A stretch of 39,308 nt of DNA, taken from sequence record ON528722. One strand, written 5' to 3'. Position 1 is the stretch's first letter. Every line of letters starts with the position of its first letter. This DNA is from Shigella phage ESh9. Both the position numbers and the translations under genes were made by a program. This document shows, piece by piece, positions 1 to 39,308 of the stretch. The notes under the pieces are model-generated. The model ran no database searches, was not told the DNA's origin, and was given only the letters and a program-made list of their open reading frames with translations.

Positions 1-732
1 GGAAACAGCGGCACGGTCAGCAGAGTCTTTAGCCTCATTCCGGTATGACATGGAGTGAAGCGCGTAGGTTCGTGATGATTCTAGATTTGGCTCCACAGCG
101 GTTTCCTTAACGGCCCACTGTTTTGATAACTCAGCAGACCCAGCAGAAGAGCTTGCAGAGCTTGCAGATGCGTTCGCAGAGTTGTTCGCATCGTTTGCAC
201 GAGCGGTCGCACGGTCAGCTTCCTGTTTCGCTCGATTCGCAGAGTTCAACGCAGAGTCGTTCCACCGTTGGATTTGACCTAAGTTGATTGCGTCACCTAC
301 ATCTTGCGCATCCGCAACGTTCACAATACGACGACCACGAGCATCCAAGTTCCCATCATTGTTAACGCCAATTGTATCAGCGGTAAGGTCACGGGCTTCC
401 TCAGCAACGTGAAGGGTCTGAACCTGAGATATGTTCAAATCATATGCCCGCAGGATAGAGCCGTCGGTAAAGTCAACCAGACGGTCTGTAGCGGAGGTGA
501 ATCGCCTGATTTCAATCAAAGTATATCCGTCCGCTGGCCCCAATGCTCTCGTTGTAGAGATTGTGGTCTTAGTCGCAAAACGATAGTCTTGATTCAAGAT
601 GAGTTCCTTTCGGTCAACGCCGATAAGTGTCACTCGGACGAACTTACGAGCCAGATACTCAAACGGAATATTGAAGTCCGTAGTGGAGCCATCCAGCGGG
701 TAAGTCATCACGGTCTTAATAGTTGTAGCCAT
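1..732 (-). CDS. 17: Tail fiber gp17, N-terminal part (ATG at 732; continues in frame into 38091..39308 if the window is circular)
   Basis: SD GGAGGT then ATG at 732; translation MATTIKTVMTYPLDGSTTDFNIPFEYLARKF... matches the recalled T7/T3 gp17 N-terminal anchor; no stop before position 1. Confidence 0.85.
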   Translation of the reverse strand, partial: MATTIKTVMTYPLDGSTTDFNIPFEYLARKFVRVTLIGVDRKELILNQDYRFATKTTISTTRALGPADGYTLIEIRRFTSATDRLVDFTDGSILRAYDLNISQVQTLHVAEEARDLTADTIGVNNDGNLDARGRRIVNVADAQDVGDAINLGQIQRWNDSALNSANRAKQEADRATARANDANNSANASASSASSSAGSAELSKQWAVKETAVEPNLESSRTYALHSMSYRNEAKDSADRAAVS

Positions 733-785: not shown

Positions 786-808
786 TCTCCCTTTAGTGAG
801 GGTTTATT
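786..808 (-). promoter_or_regulatory. T3-type phage RNAP promoter upstream of gene 17 (one-mismatch variant)
   Basis: Reverse complement reads AATAAACCCTCACTAAAGGGAGA; overlaps the gene 16 stop. Confidence 0.7.
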
Positions 809-3800
809 GGCGAGGGCGTGTTGCATCATCCTTAATCTTGATGCCCTGCTCTTCGAAGATGTGCATAATCAACTGTTGTGTCAGCGGGTCATTGGGGACA
901 AGCTCACGCATGGAGTTGAACACACCAGTACGGAACTCTACCTCACTCTGCTTACCATCAGAGCTAAGTAGCGTAGAGGCATTCATGGCGGTAGACCCAA
1001 TGTTCCCAACTAGTCCTACAGCTGGTACTTGGTTGGATATCGCCCCTACTATGTTACCCGCAACCTCCTTACCAGTCCAAGCCTTGTTGCGGTCACGTTC
1101 GGTCTTTTCCTTTGGTAACACCGTTGAGCGGGTGTACTGGTAGGTATCATTACCGAACAAGCCACCAATCATATCATAGACAGACAGTGGGGAACCAAGG
1201 TGTGAACTTCTGGATAATGACGCGTGGGCAATCATTTTAGGGTCAAGAGCATTCTTGAGGTACTCCTTACGCTTGTGCTCCTGTAGGCCGTAAGCCTTCA
1301 AGTGCGCCTGAGCAACATAGTAACCACCAGCCAGACCCATAGAGATGATTGCAGTCAGCGCAGAATCGATAGCCCTGTTGTTCTTAGTTGCGTCATAGAA
1401 CAACCTAACGAAGCGCGAGTTAAGAGACTTGATTACGAAGTTCTTAAACTGCATCACCATCTTGACAGCCGCTCCGTAAGCCTTGGTGTCCTGTGAGGAA
1501 ACCTTATGCGGCCTAAGGATAGTCTCATCAGCAACCTTATCAGCCAGACGCCATAAGTCCATAGTCCGTGGGTCATTAGCAAAAGCCTGTTTGTCCCGGA
1601 TTGTAAACTTACCATCAGCATCACGAGTAGCGTGGTCACGGAACAACTGCTTTATTCCCTTCCACTGCTCAGGTGACACAGAGGCAGACTTAAGGTAATT
1701 CGCTTTACCGAACTTAGAGCCTTTCCCAGCGAGCGCTGCCCCAGCCACATCACCCAGTACACCCTGTCTGGCAGCATCGATGATGTAGTTAGAGGTTCCA
1801 TTAAGCAGCATCGTCCAAGGTGAACGCGCAGACAATTCCTGAGTGCCGAAGCGAATAGTCCCAACCACATTAGCCACCACTGCGTTAGTGTCAGTAGACT
1901 CCCGAAGGCGACGTATATGGTCTTCACGCCCCGGACGGATAAGCTGGTCTAGTTCCTTCCCGAACACCATACCATGAATCTCCTTAATCTCAGAGCCACT
2001 CAATGGCCTACTCCTGCTTACCCAATCGTTAAGCAGTGGGATTCCATGAAGTACCGCAGAGGTGTTTCCTTTACTCAACATAGCAGCAACCTCTGTGAAG
2101 TTCTGGAACGGCATGTAGAAGTTCTTAGCGAAGAAAGCCAAGTCAGTCATGGAGCGAAGAATCGTACCGAAAGCTCCCTCTGGGTTCATGCGGGCACGAC
2201 CAGTCAGAATCTTCACGGTGTCCTTGAGTGCTTCGACTTCACCTTTCAGTGAGCCGTTACCCTCAGACTGCTTGTCCAGCGCCATGATTTCATCTTTCAG
2301 TTCCTTCGTCGTCTTACCCGAACCACCCATGATAGCCACGTCACCATCAACTCGACGGTCATAAGCAGGAAGAATGTCAGCCATATCGTAGGTACGCAGG
2401 TCGTTCACAGAGAACGTGCTACCATCCGGGAGAGTCACAGCCATGTCGCTGTCGAACATGTTACGGGCCTCCAAGAAGTTATTGTTCTCGATGCCAACCA
2501 GACCCTCAAGGTTTTCATCAATGATAGAGGATGCAGTGAATTGGTCAGTGTGCGATATACCGTAGGCTTTATCCATGGCGTACTTCTCAGCCATCTGACG
2601 CAGCATCGCCTCTTCGTCTACCTTAGGTTCCACCTTCTCACCAGTGCCAAACTTCTGACGCTCTGAGGGCTTCGCTGGGGCAGAGTCATAGGCTTTACGG
2701 AATGCACGACCATCTGGTGTGCGAACACCACCAACAGTCTCATCCGTACCGCGATACACGTAGTCAGGACTCTCGGTCTCCGCAATGCGATACATCTCGG
2801 TTGCGATACCCTTACGGCGGTACTTCTCGGACACTTCCAGGCTCGGGTTCTGCCACACATCGCCGTCACGTTTAGCGAACTCTACGCTACCCACATGCTC
2901 ACCTTTCTTAGTGAACACGTCGACTGCGAACTCAGCGCCTTCAGCCGTCTTCGCGGTATAGTACACAAAGTCACCATCCACCTTGTACGGAGTCTCGCCT
3001 GAGTAGTCACGCTTACCTGCGAAGTAGTCACCCTGTAGCTCACCATTGGTGACCTTTGTGACACTAGCGGAGTTACCGCCAGTGACTAGGGAGTCAGGCA
3101 TGGCAGGAGTCGCCTCAGAGCCACGCAGGAAGTTCTCAGCGTCCGCAGCAGCTTGTGCTCCTTTGGTTGCCTTCTCGAACTCGTCAGCGTGAAGCTCTCG
3201 GAGGTACTCATCGACTCTCGCCTTGACTTCTGGACGAGCGCGGTAAGATGTAAGCCACGACTCTGCAATTGCCCGTTGTAGTCCCTCGTTACCGTAGCGA
3301 CTCACCATGTACAACTTTATAGCTCGGTCATATACATTAGGCACGTAGGTTCCGTTATGGCGTGAGCCGGGGAATATGCTACGAGCTTTGACGTTCCCGA
3401 AGATAGCAGGGTTTTCCATGAGTTCGCGCTTGAGGTCGAAGTGTTGTTTCAGGATATCCATCACCTTACGTTCTCCCTTTGTGAGTCCTGATTGTAGCTC
3501 TGGTCTCTCAATCGCTAAGGCAGCACGCTTATAGATTTCCTGTCGTACTTCCTTACGGCTCATCTTCACACCACCTGTAGAGAACTCAGGGTCTTTCATT
3601 GCAGTACGCACAGCATCATAAAGCTGATTGTAGGTGCGCTGATTGTTCGCGTGGAGCCGCTCCTTAATGTCAGAAGCAGTAGCACCGAACTTACCGGAAG
3701 TCCCTGACTCCATGCCAGTTGGAGAACGCACAAGGTCACTCGCAATGGAGCGAACAGTCGGGTTCTCAGAGCGGAGAGTCTTCAAGCCAATCTCAGTGAA

Positions 3801-5333
3801 ACCACCCAAAGAGATACCACGAGCGGCACGCTCAGGGTTGACCTCCTCGAACTCGCTAAGAGTCTGAGGGTTCAGCGGGTTGGTGTCGCTAAGGATTTGA
3901 CCTTGAGGCAACACAACGGCACCCGGCTCAGTTTCAAGTGGAGAATAGTTCACCCCGGCATGTTCCCCATCAAAGGAGCGACCATCTGTTGGCATACGTG
4001 TTAAGTCCTCGCCACCAGCTTGAAAGGCAGACTCACGCGCCTCCAGTCGAGTAGCAATGCGGTCGAAGTCGTTACTAACTTGACCAGCGCGAACACGGCC
4101 CAAGGCTGCACTCACACCATCAGCTATTGCGCTCATCCCGGCCCCGAACATAAGACCACCAAGGATTGCATCTTGATAGTGCGCCTCACCACCAGCAACG
4201 GATGTACGAACAGCTTCTGAAACTGCGCTCAAGGCTGCACTTTGGGCACCAACAACGAACGCCTTGTTTACCACCTTGAGACCCTTTCCAGCAACACCAA
4301 CAAGCGGCACATAGCTCAATGGGTCCACACCAGCCCCAACGATTCCACCAACCAACTTCGCTCCCACGCCAGCACCTTGAGTCTTCGCAGCCATAGCCGC
4401 ATTCTCATTAGCCAGTTTAATCAGGTCATCCAAATTCTCTGGGTCTCCTCCAGTAACAACGTTGATGTAGTTTGGGTCTTTTACCTCGTTACGGATACGC
4501 TCTAATTGCTCAGTCGTCCATGTAGTGCTGTTCCATCGAGTTGGGGTAATAGCGTCCTTGAAGATGTCAAAACTATCATCAAAACGCGCAGCATTGAAGG
4601 CAACACCCAATAGCGAGTTATGAAGCTCGGCACTTGTGGTGTCCTTTATCCCGAAGAATGTTGAACGGTTTTCATATTCCTCAACGGTAGTTCCATGTTT
4701 ATCGTAGAAATCCTTAGTGAACGGTACGGCAGGGGCCTGTTGTTCCACACCCTCCAGCTTAAAGCCAGTTGATTGTGGAAGCTCAGTTCCTACCTTCCCG
4801 GCCTTACCGATTCCAGCAAAGGCGTCCTCAGCGGGAATCCCTTTAGCCTTTGGGGTTATCCCACCGAACGCCTCCAAGTCTCCCTTGCGCGGGCTGTTAG
4901 CCACATCGAGAAGTTTACGCATGTAGTTGCGACCCTCCTCGCTGATAGAGGCCCAATCGCCTCGGTCATAAGCCTGCATTTGTGGAGCGCCATTGCGTCC
5001 CTCTCCTTGGTTGTACGCTAGGGCCGCTTTGAGTTCATCCCCGTCGTATTTCCTAACGAGGTCGCTCAGGTGGCGAGCGGCTGCGTCCACAGCCAACTCA
5101 GGGTTGAATCTCTCATCGTCATCTCCCCCTGTAACCTTGAGTCCAAGCCCCGATGCCGTACCTTTAGTGAACTGCATTAGACCTAATGGCCCGGTAGGGC
5201 TTTTGGCTTTCGGATTGAAGCCAGACTCGTTGAACGCCAATTTACGAAGCAGGCCATAGGAGACCCCATGTTCATCTGCCGCTTTCTGAAATAACCCATC
5301 ATACTCAGATGGTTTCGTCTTGTCGTAGCTCAT
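804..5333 (-). CDS. 16: Internal virion (core/ejection) protein gp16 with N-terminal lytic transglycosylase domain; 1509 aa, carries an internal insertion of about 195 aa
   Basis: N-terminus MSYDKTKPSEYDGLFQKAADEHGVSYGLLRKLA...GPLGLMQFT is the T7 gp16 SLT domain; recalled T7 gp16 similarity along the whole length except aa 716-912. Confidence 0.9.
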   Translation of the reverse strand: MSYDKTKPSEYDGLFQKAADEHGVSYGLLRKLAFNESGFNPKAKSPTGPLGLMQFTKGTASGLGLKVTGGDDDERFNPELAVDAAARHLSDLVRKYDGDELKAALAYNQGEGRNGAPQMQAYDRGDWASISEEGRNYMRKLLDVANSPRKGDLEAFGGITPKAKGIPAEDAFAGIGKAGKVGTELPQSTGFKLEGVEQQAPAVPFTKDFYDKHGTTVEEYENRSTFFGIKDTTSAELHNSLLGVAFNAARFDDSFDIFKDAITPTRWNSTTWTTEQLERIRNEVKDPNYINVVTGGDPENLDDLIKLANENAAMAAKTQGAGVGAKLVGGIVGAGVDPLSYVPLVGVAGKGLKVVNKAFVVGAQSAALSAVSEAVRTSVAGGEAHYQDAILGGLMFGAGMSAIADGVSAALGRVRAGQVSNDFDRIATRLEARESAFQAGGEDLTRMPTDGRSFDGEHAGVNYSPLETEPGAVVLPQGQILSDTNPLNPQTLSEFEEVNPERAARGISLGGFTEIGLKTLRSENPTVRSIASDLVRSPTGMESGTSGKFGATASDIKERLHANNQRTYNQLYDAVRTAMKDPEFSTGGVKMSRKEVRQEIYKRAALAIERPELQSGLTKGERKVMDILKQHFDLKRELMENPAIFGNVKARSIFPGSRHNGTYVPNVYDRAIKLYMVSRYGNEGLQRAIAESWLTSYRARPEVKARVDEYLRELHADEFEKATKGAQAAADAENFLRGSEATPAMPDSLVTGGNSASVTKVTNGELQGDYFAGKRDYSGETPYKVDGDFVYYTAKTAEGAEFAVDVFTKKGEHVGSVEFAKRDGDVWQNPSLEVSEKYRRKGIATEMYRIAETESPDYVYRGTDETVGGVRTPDGRAFRKAYDSAPAKPSERQKFGTGEKVEPKVDEEAMLRQMAEKYAMDKAYGISHTDQFTASSIIDENLEGLVGIENNNFLEARNMFDSDMAVTLPDGSTFSVNDLRTYDMADILPAYDRRVDGDVAIMGGSGKTTKELKDEIMALDKQSEGNGSLKGEVEALKDTVKILTGRARMNPEGAFGTILRSMTDLAFFAKNFYMPFQNFTEVAAMLSKGNTSAVLHGIPLLNDWVSRSRPLSGSEIKEIHGMVFGKELDQLIRPGREDHIRRLRESTDTNAVVANVVGTIRFGTQELSARSPWTMLLNGTSNYIIDAARQGVLGDVAGAALAGKGSKFGKANYLKSASVSPEQWKGIKQLFRDHATRDADGKFTIRDKQAFANDPRTMDLWRLADKVADETILRPHKVSSQDTKAYGAAVKMVMQFKNFVIKSLNSRFVRLFYDATKNNRAIDSALTAIISMGLAGGYYVAQAHLKAYGLQEHKRKEYLKNALDPKMIAHASLSRSSHLGSPLSVYDMIGGLFGNDTYQYTRSTVLPKEKTERDRNKAWTGKEVAGNIVGAISNQVPAVGLVGNIGSTAMNASTLLSSDGKQSEVEFRTGVFNSMRELVPNDPLTQQLIMHIFEEQGIKIKDDATRPRQ

Positions 5334-38090: not shown

Positions 38091-39308
38091 TTAGTCTGTC
38101 GTAAGTTTAGATTCAAGCTCCTGAACGCGAGCGTCTAGGTTCTTAACAAGCAGCATTAATCCGCCAATTATCTGGTTAGGGTCTGGAGACTGCATACCAT
38201 CGCTCATTATATCAACCGCCTCTGGCCAGATTCGAATCAAATCCTGTGTTATAAAACCAGCACGGGAGCGCTTACCAGTGATAGTAATGTCGCGTCCACG
38301 GTTATCCTTATATGCTGAATCCTTATACTTATAAGACACTGGTATGTATGCCCGAATGATGTTCAACATGTCGTCAGCAGAGCGAACAACCTTAATGTCT
38401 TCTTTCAGCCTTCTGTCTGACTGGAACCAGCGGAACCCAACGGATGTACCATCAACGTTACCCTCAATGTAGTCCGCGCCACGGCCTGTGTACAGGCGAA
38501 CCCCAGCAGGAGGTTTGGCGAATCTGTAGTTGTCGTTGAGCATTCCCCAAAGGTTGCCACCAACGTTGTTCCATACGCCACCGCTAAGGTTCCCATCTGG
38601 GTTTAGTATCGCGTTGCCCATTCCTGCGTAGAGGTTCTGACCAACGATATTGTTGTTCCCCTCAATGCGGGCACCGGAATGAACCTGTAGGTGGTTTGCG
38701 TGGAGCGCAGCGCCTCCGGTAATAACCACTCTACCAATCTCTACCGTGTTCTCAGCATTAACTGTGCGGAACACGAATCCGCCAGAACCAGCACCACGGT
38801 TGGTGATAAAGTTTGACTCACCGCTACCACCACTTTCGTTCCATCCAATATGTAGACCCTGCCGTTGTCCAACATGTTGTGGATTGTTGTCAATGTGGAG
38901 TCGGGACAGCTTATTATAAACGTTTGGTGATAGTGTTTGATTAATGCCTCCCTGAGCATATGTGACCCCAGCCACGGTGATGTTTCGCTGAGAGTACATA
39001 TCCCGCTTTGCGGTAATATCCCTTTCAACAATCAAGTCCTCTCCAACAAGCGCACCTTTCTGGATACTCGCCGCACCTGTGGAGACTAAACCACCGCCTG
39101 TGACGTTCTGGGTAGTCACGAGTGCCCCTTTGAACCACACGTTTACGCCTTCAACCTTGTCGATTGTACCAGCAAACTCATTCATGTTTCCCAGCTTACT
39201 AGCCTCAGTGATTGCTCTCTCCTCGGAGGCCTTAGCGTTGGTCTCTGATACCTTAGCGGCAGCAGCCGAGTTAGCAACGCTCCCTTCTGAGGCCTTAGCA
39301 TTGGTCTC
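38091..39308 (-). CDS. 17: Tail fiber gp17, C-terminal part: coiled-coil shaft, glycine-rich distal domain and C-terminal intramolecular-chaperone-like module
   Basis: Open frame runs off the window end; ...NMNEFAGTIDKVEGVNVWFKG aligns to T7 gp17 ...AGAIDKVDGTNVYWKG; the distal part differs from T7 and ends with an SDRRLKEDI module. Confidence 0.85.
   Translation of the reverse strand, partial: ETNAKASEGSVANSAAAAKVSETNAKASEERAITEASKLGNMNEFAGTIDKVEGVNVWFKGALVTTQNVTGGGLVSTGAASIQKGALVGEDLIVERDITAKRDMYSQRNITVAGVTYAQGGINQTLSPNVYNKLSRLHIDNNPQHVGQRQGLHIGWNESGGSGESNFITNRGAGSGGFVFRTVNAENTVEIGRVVITGGAALHANHLQVHSGARIEGNNNIVGQNLYAGMGNAILNPDGNLSGGVWNNVGGNLWGMLNDNYRFAKPPAGVRLYTGRGADYIEGNVDGTSVGFRWFQSDRRLKEDIKVVRSADDMLNIIRAYIPVSYKYKDSAYKDNRGRDITITGKRSRAGFITQDLIRIWPEAVDIMSDGMQSPDPNQIIGGLMLLVKNLDARVQELESKLTTD

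Follow-up and report, generated by a model that had tools for sequence, protein, structure and literature searches.

The phages T7 and T3 use the rough core of lipopolysaccharide (LPS) (PMC11990801). In T7 gp17, the tip domain comes after a pyramid domain, with a short α-helical linker between the two (PMC11680406), and host-range substitutions cluster at the LPS-contacting tip residues 479-542 (PMC6962156). A second fibre type is known since the genome of phage φYeO3-12, of which the recombinant gp17 binds Yersinia enterocolitica O:3 cells and not the O-antigen-less mutant YeO3-R1 (PMC8739404). Within the same family, phage AP5 requires the O:3 O-antigen (PMC4283147), phiYe-F10 requires rfbF of the O-antigen cluster (PMC4786787) and Escherichia coli phage MeretOppenheim (Bas102) depends on the O16 O-antigen, its authors noting that the fibre has an intramolecular chaperone (IMC) at the C-terminus (PMC11990801). 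Here we describe gene 17 of Shigella phage ESh9, as present in a DNA stretch of 39,308 nucleotides (sequence record ON528722; hereafter the window), and compare its fibre with both types.

Gene 17 and the architecture of its fibre

The window fibre is a φYeO3-12-type gp17. Its 649 residues align end to end with the φYeO3-12 protein (CAB63638, 645 residues; 86.6% identity over 647 residues) and with PHROG 9502, 'tail fiber protein' (E = 0, residues 1-648 against 1-647 of 647). We consider it likely that, taken as a whole, this is the gene 17 of a Teetrevirus phage, coding for a φYeO3-12-type fibre that consists of an anchor, a rod, a distal domain and a Peptidase_S74 (S74) chaperone domain and that binds a surface polysaccharide. 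An earlier note on this DNA, made from the sequence alone, described the distal part as non-T7 and did not recognise this long-known type. A tblastn search with the distal domain alone retrieves it from 42 deposited phage records, including the Yersinia phages φYeO3-12, AP5, phiYe-F10 and AP10, the Enterobacter phages E-2, E-3, E-4 and KNP3, the Klebsiella phages IME305 and KP13MC5-2, Citrobacter phage phiCFP-1, Serratia phage 2050H2 and several Shigella and E. coli phages. The gene and its parts are positioned in the window as follows.

1..732, minus strand: first part of gene 17, residues 1-244, by translation and coordinate mapping; 99% nucleotide identity to Klebsiella phage KP13MC5-2
38091..39308, minus strand: second part of gene 17, residues 245-649 and stop codon (38093-38091); in-frame continuation, colinear with φYeO3-12 gp17
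268..732, minus strand: N-terminal tail-attachment domain, residues 1-155; Pfam PF03906 (Phage_T7_tail), E 7.8e-59
1..267, minus strand: first part of the shaft, residues 156-244, an Ala/Ser/Asn-rich rod (22% Ala, 15% Ser) with weak similarity to the T7/T3 shaft
39126..39308, minus strand: second part of the shaft, residues 245-305; 39-40% identity to T7/T3 residues 189-288
38421..39125, minus strand: presumed receptor-binding distal domain, residues 306-540 (235 residues), which remains part of the mature fibre; T7/T3 match not significant
38697..38864, minus strand: Gly-rich conserved core, residues 393-448 (RQGLHIGWNESGGSGESNFITNRGAGSGGFVFRTVNAENTVEIGRV...; …QGLHIGWNESGGSGESNFITNRGAGSGGFVFRTVN…); lowest entropy within the distal domain
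38472..38618, minus strand: short island, residues 475-523, aligned by hhalign with T7 gp17 435-480, which we take to be the end of the pyramid, the α-helical linker and the start of the tip
38418..38423, minus strand: predicted autoproteolytic site between Gln540 and Ser541; the S74 Pfam profile begins at Ser541
38094..38420, minus strand: Peptidase_S74 IMC, residues 541-649; PF13884, E 1.7e-12; Lys546 at 38403-38405
786..808, minus strand: φ17 promoter of the T3-type phage RNA polymerase; the 19-mer AACCCTCACTAAAGGGAGA matches perfectly at 786-804 and overlaps the gene 16 stop codon (806-804)

The gene is divided over both ends of the window, which is a complete T3-like (Teetrevirus) podophage genome, circularly permuted, in reverse orientation and cut within gene 17. 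The permutation follows from the minus-strand open reading frame (ORF), which leaves the window at the right edge and resumes in frame at the left edge once the ends are joined, running from the ATG at 732-730 to base 1 and then from 39308 to the stop codon at 38093-38091; in the ORF map, the plus strand of 38421-39308 holds no long ORF. The junction is a codon boundary (residue 244 at bases 3..1, residue 245 at 39308..39306) at which the colinear alignment with φYeO3-12 gp17 shows no indel. In its backbone the genome shares about 96% identity with those of other Teetrevirus members, examples being Serratia phage 2050H2, Klebsiella phage KP13MC5-2 and the Citrobacter phages SH2 and phiCFP-1. 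Annotating gene 17 in this genome requires joining both window ends. The shaft carries a direct repeat, VSETNAKASE, twice and 22 residues apart (AAVSETNAKASEGSVANSAAAAKVSETNAKASEE; window 1-30 and 39210-39308, minus strand, residues ~241-275), and the window junction lies inside the first copy; since φYeO3-12 carries both copies too, the join is not a repeat-collapse artefact. The deposited record of KP13MC5-2 shows the same artefact: it has a 'hypothetical protein' for the last 262 residues of gene 17 and no annotation for what precedes them.

As to the N-terminal half, the earlier note assigned about 150 residues to bases 1..732; these bases code for residues 1-244, the Pfam anchor covering residues 1-155. 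The PF03906 anchor places the protein among the T7-type tail fibres, with 77.4% and 78.1% identity to T7 and T3 gp17, respectively (BLASTP by segment), 100% to φYeO3-12, and PDB matches to 7boz, 8e4g and 8dsp. T7 gp17 (PDB 7boz) matches residues 1-307 only (E 7e-87), a second stretch reaching 2.9 bits, and within the shaft (156-305) BLASTP finds 39-40% identity to T7/T3 over the last 86 residues only. The suggestion of a mosaic fibre, in which a T7-like anchor and shaft continue into a different distal half, thus held, the similarity in the shaft being weak. The shaft ends in a joint, NMNEFAGTIDKVEGVNVWFKG (residues 285-305, window 39126-39188), which it has in common with T7/T3; hhalign gives 52% identity over 25 residues for this joint, which alone carries no statistical support, and nucleotide identity to T3/T7 climbs to 65% at codons 281-300. 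Going by the family consensus, most members have a T3/T7-like anchor and shaft, whereas the window protein has a φYeO3-12-type shaft. Because the same distal module sits on two anchor/shaft types, the conserved joint looks like a preferred exchange point.

The C-terminal domain was not included in the earlier note, which ended the feature at 38421, although the gene runs 330 bases further, to 38091, and these code for the S74 domain (residues 541-649). PF13884 ('chaperone of endosialidase') is matched with 47.8 bits, its cutoff being 22, and the match pairs residues 541-609 with profile positions 1-57 of 58. Ser541, Asp542 and Lys546 are invariant among 63 aligned sequences, and the putative nucleophilic Ser with a Lys five residues downstream (SDRRLK) is the arrangement of S74 domains. 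The role of the Ser/Lys dyad is established for the endosialidase IMC domains. Profile searches with the domain reach S16 gp37 (6f45, E 6.9e-6, SDRRIKKDIK), MYRF (7dc3, E 4.8e-5) and a tail fibre (8jov, E 1.2e-3, SDERLKREI), all alignments beginning at Ser-Asp; the GA-1 neck appendage (3gud) was retrieved in addition when a broader profile was used. With the S74 domains of K1F endosialidase, the T5 L-shaped fibre pb1, the GA-1 neck appendage, S16 gp37 and eukaryotic MYRF, the window domain has in common the C-terminal position, the Ser-Asp...Lys motif and the C-terminal helix; it differs from these systems in being placed on a small, non-enzymatic fibre tip with a T7-type anchor. Moreover, S16 has a gp38-like adhesin gene next to its fibre gene, whereas the window gene 17 is followed by the holin gene and no gp38-like gene.

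For φYeO3-12 gp17, products of ~58 kDa and ~11 kDa were seen by sodium dodecyl sulfate polyacrylamide gel electrophoresis (PMC7582827) and the released fragment was measured by mass spectrometry at 12.242 kDa (PMC8739404). For residues 539-645 of φYeO3-12 gp17 a mass of 12,258.8 Da is calculated, and a shift of the cut by one residue changes the mass by at least 87 Da; as the calculated mass fits the measured fragment, the φYeO3-12 cleavage is placed before Ser539, the homologue of Ser541. By analogy, the S74 domain of the window protein would be released autoproteolytically, with predicted products of 57.6 kDa (mature fibre) and 12.4 kDa. The Gln540 codon has its last base at 38421, so the interval flagged in the earlier note ends exactly at the predicted cleavage site.

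The N-terminal domain (1-155) docks the fibre on the tail and the Ala/Ser-rich rod (156-305) extends to the joint. The chaperone mechanism of S74 domains is established, and we apply it to the window allele by inference. In such a mechanism, the C-terminal S74 domains would put the three chains in register, templating the fold of an intertwined distal domain. The S74 domain would then cut the chain between Gln540 and Ser541 via the Ser541/Lys546 dyad and leave, the mature fibre of 57.6 kDa ending in a β-hairpin stub (506-540).

Segmental relationships of the allele

The φYeO3-12 gp17 and its relatives (AP5, phiYe-F10, E-2/E-3/E-4, KNP3 and IME305) have the same four-part architecture as the window fibre, are colinear with it from end to end and share with the window gene the cleavage motif SDRRLKEDIK, the genomic position and the φ17 promoter. 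When the sequences are compared piece by piece, using a 60-nucleotide sliding window and a segment table among close relatives, the best-matching phage changes repeatedly along the gene (nucleotide identities):

End of gene 16 and codons 1-300: best KP13MC5-2, 97-100% (one bin 85%); poor in the group of φYeO3-12, AP5 and IME305, with 52-87% immediately before gene 17
Codons 301-320: KP13MC5-2, IME305, KNP3 and phiCFP-1, all 83%; poor in 2050H2, 55%
Codons 321-480: best IME305, KNP3, E-4 and φYeO3-12, 83-100%; poor in KP13MC5-2, 57-83%
Codons 481-540: best KP13MC5-2, 95-97%; poor in φYeO3-12 and E-4, 53-85%
Codons 541-560: best φYeO3-12 and E-4, 98%
Codons 561-600: best AP5, 88-95%
Codons 601-649: best KP13MC5-2, AP5 and IME305, 88-100%

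The allele is therefore a fine-scale recombinant patchwork with breakpoints near codons 320, 480, 540 and 600, and its IMC, which is 86-97% identical to that of relatives (86-90% for φYeO3-12, by the alignment used), is assembled from at least three sources. Residues 475-540 are only 59% identical to φYeO3-12 versus 94% to KP13MC5-2, and directly upstream of gene 17 the gene 16 end belongs to the KP13MC5-2/2050H2/phiCFP-1 type and not to that of φYeO3-12. For the genes downstream, identity is 90% or more with nearly every relative, a few bins of phiCFP-1 falling below this. None of the known relatives agrees with the window allele in every segment, and the best full-length protein identity is 92.0% (IME305). 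As such, the window fibre adds one more ordinary allele to a fibre type that is already known, of which receptor binding and self-cleavage have been studied biochemically; novelty is limited to the recombinant allele and it matters little as a discovery. It does provide a clean natural case of sub-domain recombination in a receptor-binding protein, which is useful for the design of chimeric fibres.

In a database of 5.8 billion proteins, the distal domain occurs in 62 clusters, nearly all of which combine PF03906 and PF13884 and many of which lie on contigs of ~39-40 kb. An exhaustive HMMER search over 1.84 billion representatives found only two 50%-identity clusters at E ≤ 1e-30 (P0052 and P0060), and both were already among the T7-anchored fibres of the 62-cluster search. 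A metagenomic relative (P0059) has a distal domain very close to that of the window through ~470 and then a different tip end; its S74 domain is only 39% identical, yet the last 13 residues (KRVQELESKLTTD) are identical, and this switch followed by an identical C-terminal end points to recombination inside the chaperone domain. Bas102 has a fibre whose distal module is of the same family, with 55% identity along 98% of the domain; its backbone is that of a Teseptimavirus (T7-like), its shaft is of the T7/T3 type and its variable blocks have diverged from those of the window allele. An mBio paper on Klebsiella phage P55 was also considered; its gp17 is much longer, so it is not a relevant comparison.

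The distal domain and its probable receptor

The distal domain (residues 306-540) is most similar to that of Klebsiella phage IME305 and Enterobacter phage KNP3 (88.9% identity), with 77.9% identity to φYeO3-12. The peptides by which the earlier note had marked this part lie on the minus strand at 39104-39054 (VTGGGLVSTGAASIQKG), 38846-38769 (GWNESGGSGESNFITNRGAGSGGFVF) and 38603-38544 (NPDGNLSGGVWNNVGGNLWG), and its description as Gly-rich is confirmed by a Gly content of 16.6% in residues 306-540 versus 12.5% in the C-terminal part of T7 gp17. According to the family entropy profile, the highest-entropy blocks are ~305-314, 325-344, 365-394, 445-454 and 475-484, while the stub, the chaperone domain and the Gly-rich core (393-448) show the least entropy.

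The relation of this domain to the T7 tip was examined by segment-wise BLASTP, the check that had been proposed for it, and neither residues 306-540 nor residues 541-649 match T7/T3 gp17 significantly; no homology to the T7/T3 tip throughout was found, and C-terminal pyramid and tip domains of the T7/T3 type were not recognised. The statement that the distal part is unrelated to T7 stands for most of the sequence beyond ~307 and is slightly too strong in view of one short probable island. When the family profile was aligned with a T7+T3 profile by hhalign, one local match of 46 columns was obtained (probability 91%, E 9e-7) with a score of 50.6, far above the controls, of which the reversed sequence scored 11.6 and none of 30 column shuffles more than 20.1; cutting the query to residues 306-540 lowers the score to 32.3 and the probability to 29%. 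The island (475-523) is probably homologous to the pyramid-to-tip linker of T7. One could take it as the visible remnant of a T7/T3 pyramid and tip that were inherited vertically and diverged strongly, rather than exchanged as a module, but we consider this quite improbable. Beyond the island, residues 306-474 give no signal with T7 291-434 in phmmer, BLASTP or hhalign, most of the T7 pyramid and the LPS-binding tip β-sandwich (481-553) have no detectable counterpart in the window fibre, and the S74 domain, absent from T7/T3, stands in its place. Furthermore, the same distal module is found on two anchor/shaft types within the family, and the occurrence of the Gly-rich core in many non-T7-like fibres, whose N- and C-terminal domains are different ones, suggests that the module is mobile. 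The likeness to T7/T3 gp17 (7boz, 4a0t) lies in the anchor, a partly alignable rod, which in the window fibre is 17 residues longer, the joint, the gene position and the probable island. The mature window fibre would end in the short stub 506-540, a predicted β-hairpin, compared to the ~90-residue tip sandwich of T7.

The Gly-rich core is common to at least 134 other representative proteins or clusters of 73-1842 residues. Among 107 core carriers scanned with Pfam, 44 contain S74, 13 Gp53-like_C, 6 the T7 anchor and 6 Gp34_trimer. Pfam has no model for the core itself, and profile searches of PDB gave S74 entries only, no solved structure being detectable by sequence; we therefore flag it as a common fibre core for which both a family model and a solved structure are absent. 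It is predicted to form a four-strand β-meander. One protein (P0063) contains the core followed by a DGNxYGxxWGG connector as in the window protein (43% identity over 115 residues, E 3e-19), and has at its C-terminal end a Gp53-like tip in place of the chaperone. Since this protein pairs both elements with a different tip, core and connector behave as a reusable pre-tip module.

Structure prediction was likewise proposed in the earlier note. The AlphaFold monomer models are moderate (predicted local distance difference test scores of 66.8 and 76.0), and fold searches with them gave nothing significant: for the 365-residue monomer model, Foldseek found no hit below E 0.12 in PDB, and the top matches were other trimeric fibres (Mu, HylP, T4 gp34) with a template modelling score ≤ 0.17. 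We consider it possible, with considerable doubt, that the recombinant allele, in which a Gly-rich core of the IME305/KNP3 type is joined to a connector and stub of the KP13MC5-2 type, specifies a polysaccharide receptor (an O-antigen or capsule type) new to phage fibres and that the Gly-rich core is an undescribed fibre domain with a fold absent among solved structures.

An alternative function for the distal domain would be that of an O-antigen or capsule depolymerase, as in the K1F, K11 and KP32 tailspikes, but with 235 residues per chain it is small for this, β-helix depolymerase domains being far longer. Moreover, Pfam and NCBIfam revealed no catalytic family (β-helix lyase/hydrolase, SGNH esterase or sialidase), NCBIfam giving one spurious sub-threshold match only on the distal half. 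Several PDB matches of the anchor are indeed depolymerases (9m4c, 9m4d, 8x8m), yet these matches are confined to the N-terminal anchor. The S74 chaperone was first described on K1F endosialidase and Pyra et al. speculated on hydrolytic activity (PMC7582827), whereas recombinant φYeO3-12 gp17 served as a stable adhesin in an enzyme-linked immunosorbent assay (PMC8739404). We considered the depolymerase function highly improbable and rejected it.

The distal domain of the window fibre would bind a surface polysaccharide of an enterobacterial host, most likely an O-antigen of LPS, as suggested by what is known of φYeO3-12, AP5, phiYe-F10 and Bas102; by the same analogy, the rough LPS core would not be its target and the fibre would have no enzymatic activity. 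The proposal that the distal half is the host-range determinant is supported by homology, given the O-antigen-dependent binding of φYeO3-12 gp17 (PMC8739404). That the receptor would differ from the LPS target of T7/T3 was reasonable as far as a different determinant is concerned, and too broad in that the characterised relatives still target LPS, at its O-antigen instead of its core. It may also be argued that the fibre binds a capsule or an outer-membrane protein of a Klebsiella- or Enterobacter-type host: the closest distal alleles come from Klebsiella phage IME305 and Enterobacter phages KNP3, E-3 and E-4, the closest backbone and N-terminal half come from Klebsiella phage KP13MC5-2, and a literature search gave no receptor for these phages. 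We regard this as unlikely, since O-antigen dependence is the rule in the four family members for which receptor data exist and since passage through the Klebsiella capsule usually takes a depolymerase domain, which the fibre does not have.

Several points nevertheless weigh against O-antigen binding by a trimeric, self-cleaving window fibre. The evidence on receptor and cleavage comes from relatives and not from the window allele, and for the nearest fibre relatives, the Klebsiella and Enterobacter phages, the literature search found no receptor, while in Klebsiella the capsule rather than the O-antigen is commonly targeted. The trimeric architecture is a presumed one, the monomer models being moderate and the fold searches non-significant. 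Finally, residues 481-540 are very different in φYeO3-12 and AP5 although both phages use one receptor, so that the sub-segment that sets specificity may lie in or outside this stretch.

Promoter, leader and neighbouring genes

Gene 17 lies between the genes of the internal virion protein gp16 and the holin gp17.5 and has its own promoter, the order being that of T7, T3 and φYeO3-12, with gene 16 upstream and holin, gp18, Rz/Rz1 and large terminase downstream. The T3 promoter core AACCCTCACTAAAGGGAGA occurs 11 times in the window without mismatch, each time on the minus strand, where 0.01 are expected by chance, and the annotated φ17 promoter of φYeO3-12 is located at the same place as that of the window. 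A ribosome binding site (AAGGAGG) lies 5 nucleotides upstream of the ATG. Scans for σ70 promoters and terminators around gene 17 remained at chance level and Rfam gave no match in the whole window. In the 5' leader of gene 17, directly behind the φ17 start site and ahead of the ribosome binding site, an imperfect hairpin (GAGAGAGG-n10-CCTCTTCTCTC) is present at 758-787 on the minus strand.

Gene 16 (804-5333, minus strand) contains an insertion at ~2660-3240, which adds ~187 residues and is absent from the closest backbone relatives. DNA similar to this insertion (81-84% identity) is found in gp16 of Klebsiella phages FOPMU1, VAC71 and P7246, E. coli phage pO103 and Yersinia phage WX2. Within it, a segment resembling GNAT acetyltransferases (2772-2933, residues 801-854, motif RRKGIATEMY) matches PF00583 with 21.7 bits against a cutoff of 20.7, and this segment is a possible enzyme domain that could be delivered into the cell with the ejectosome.

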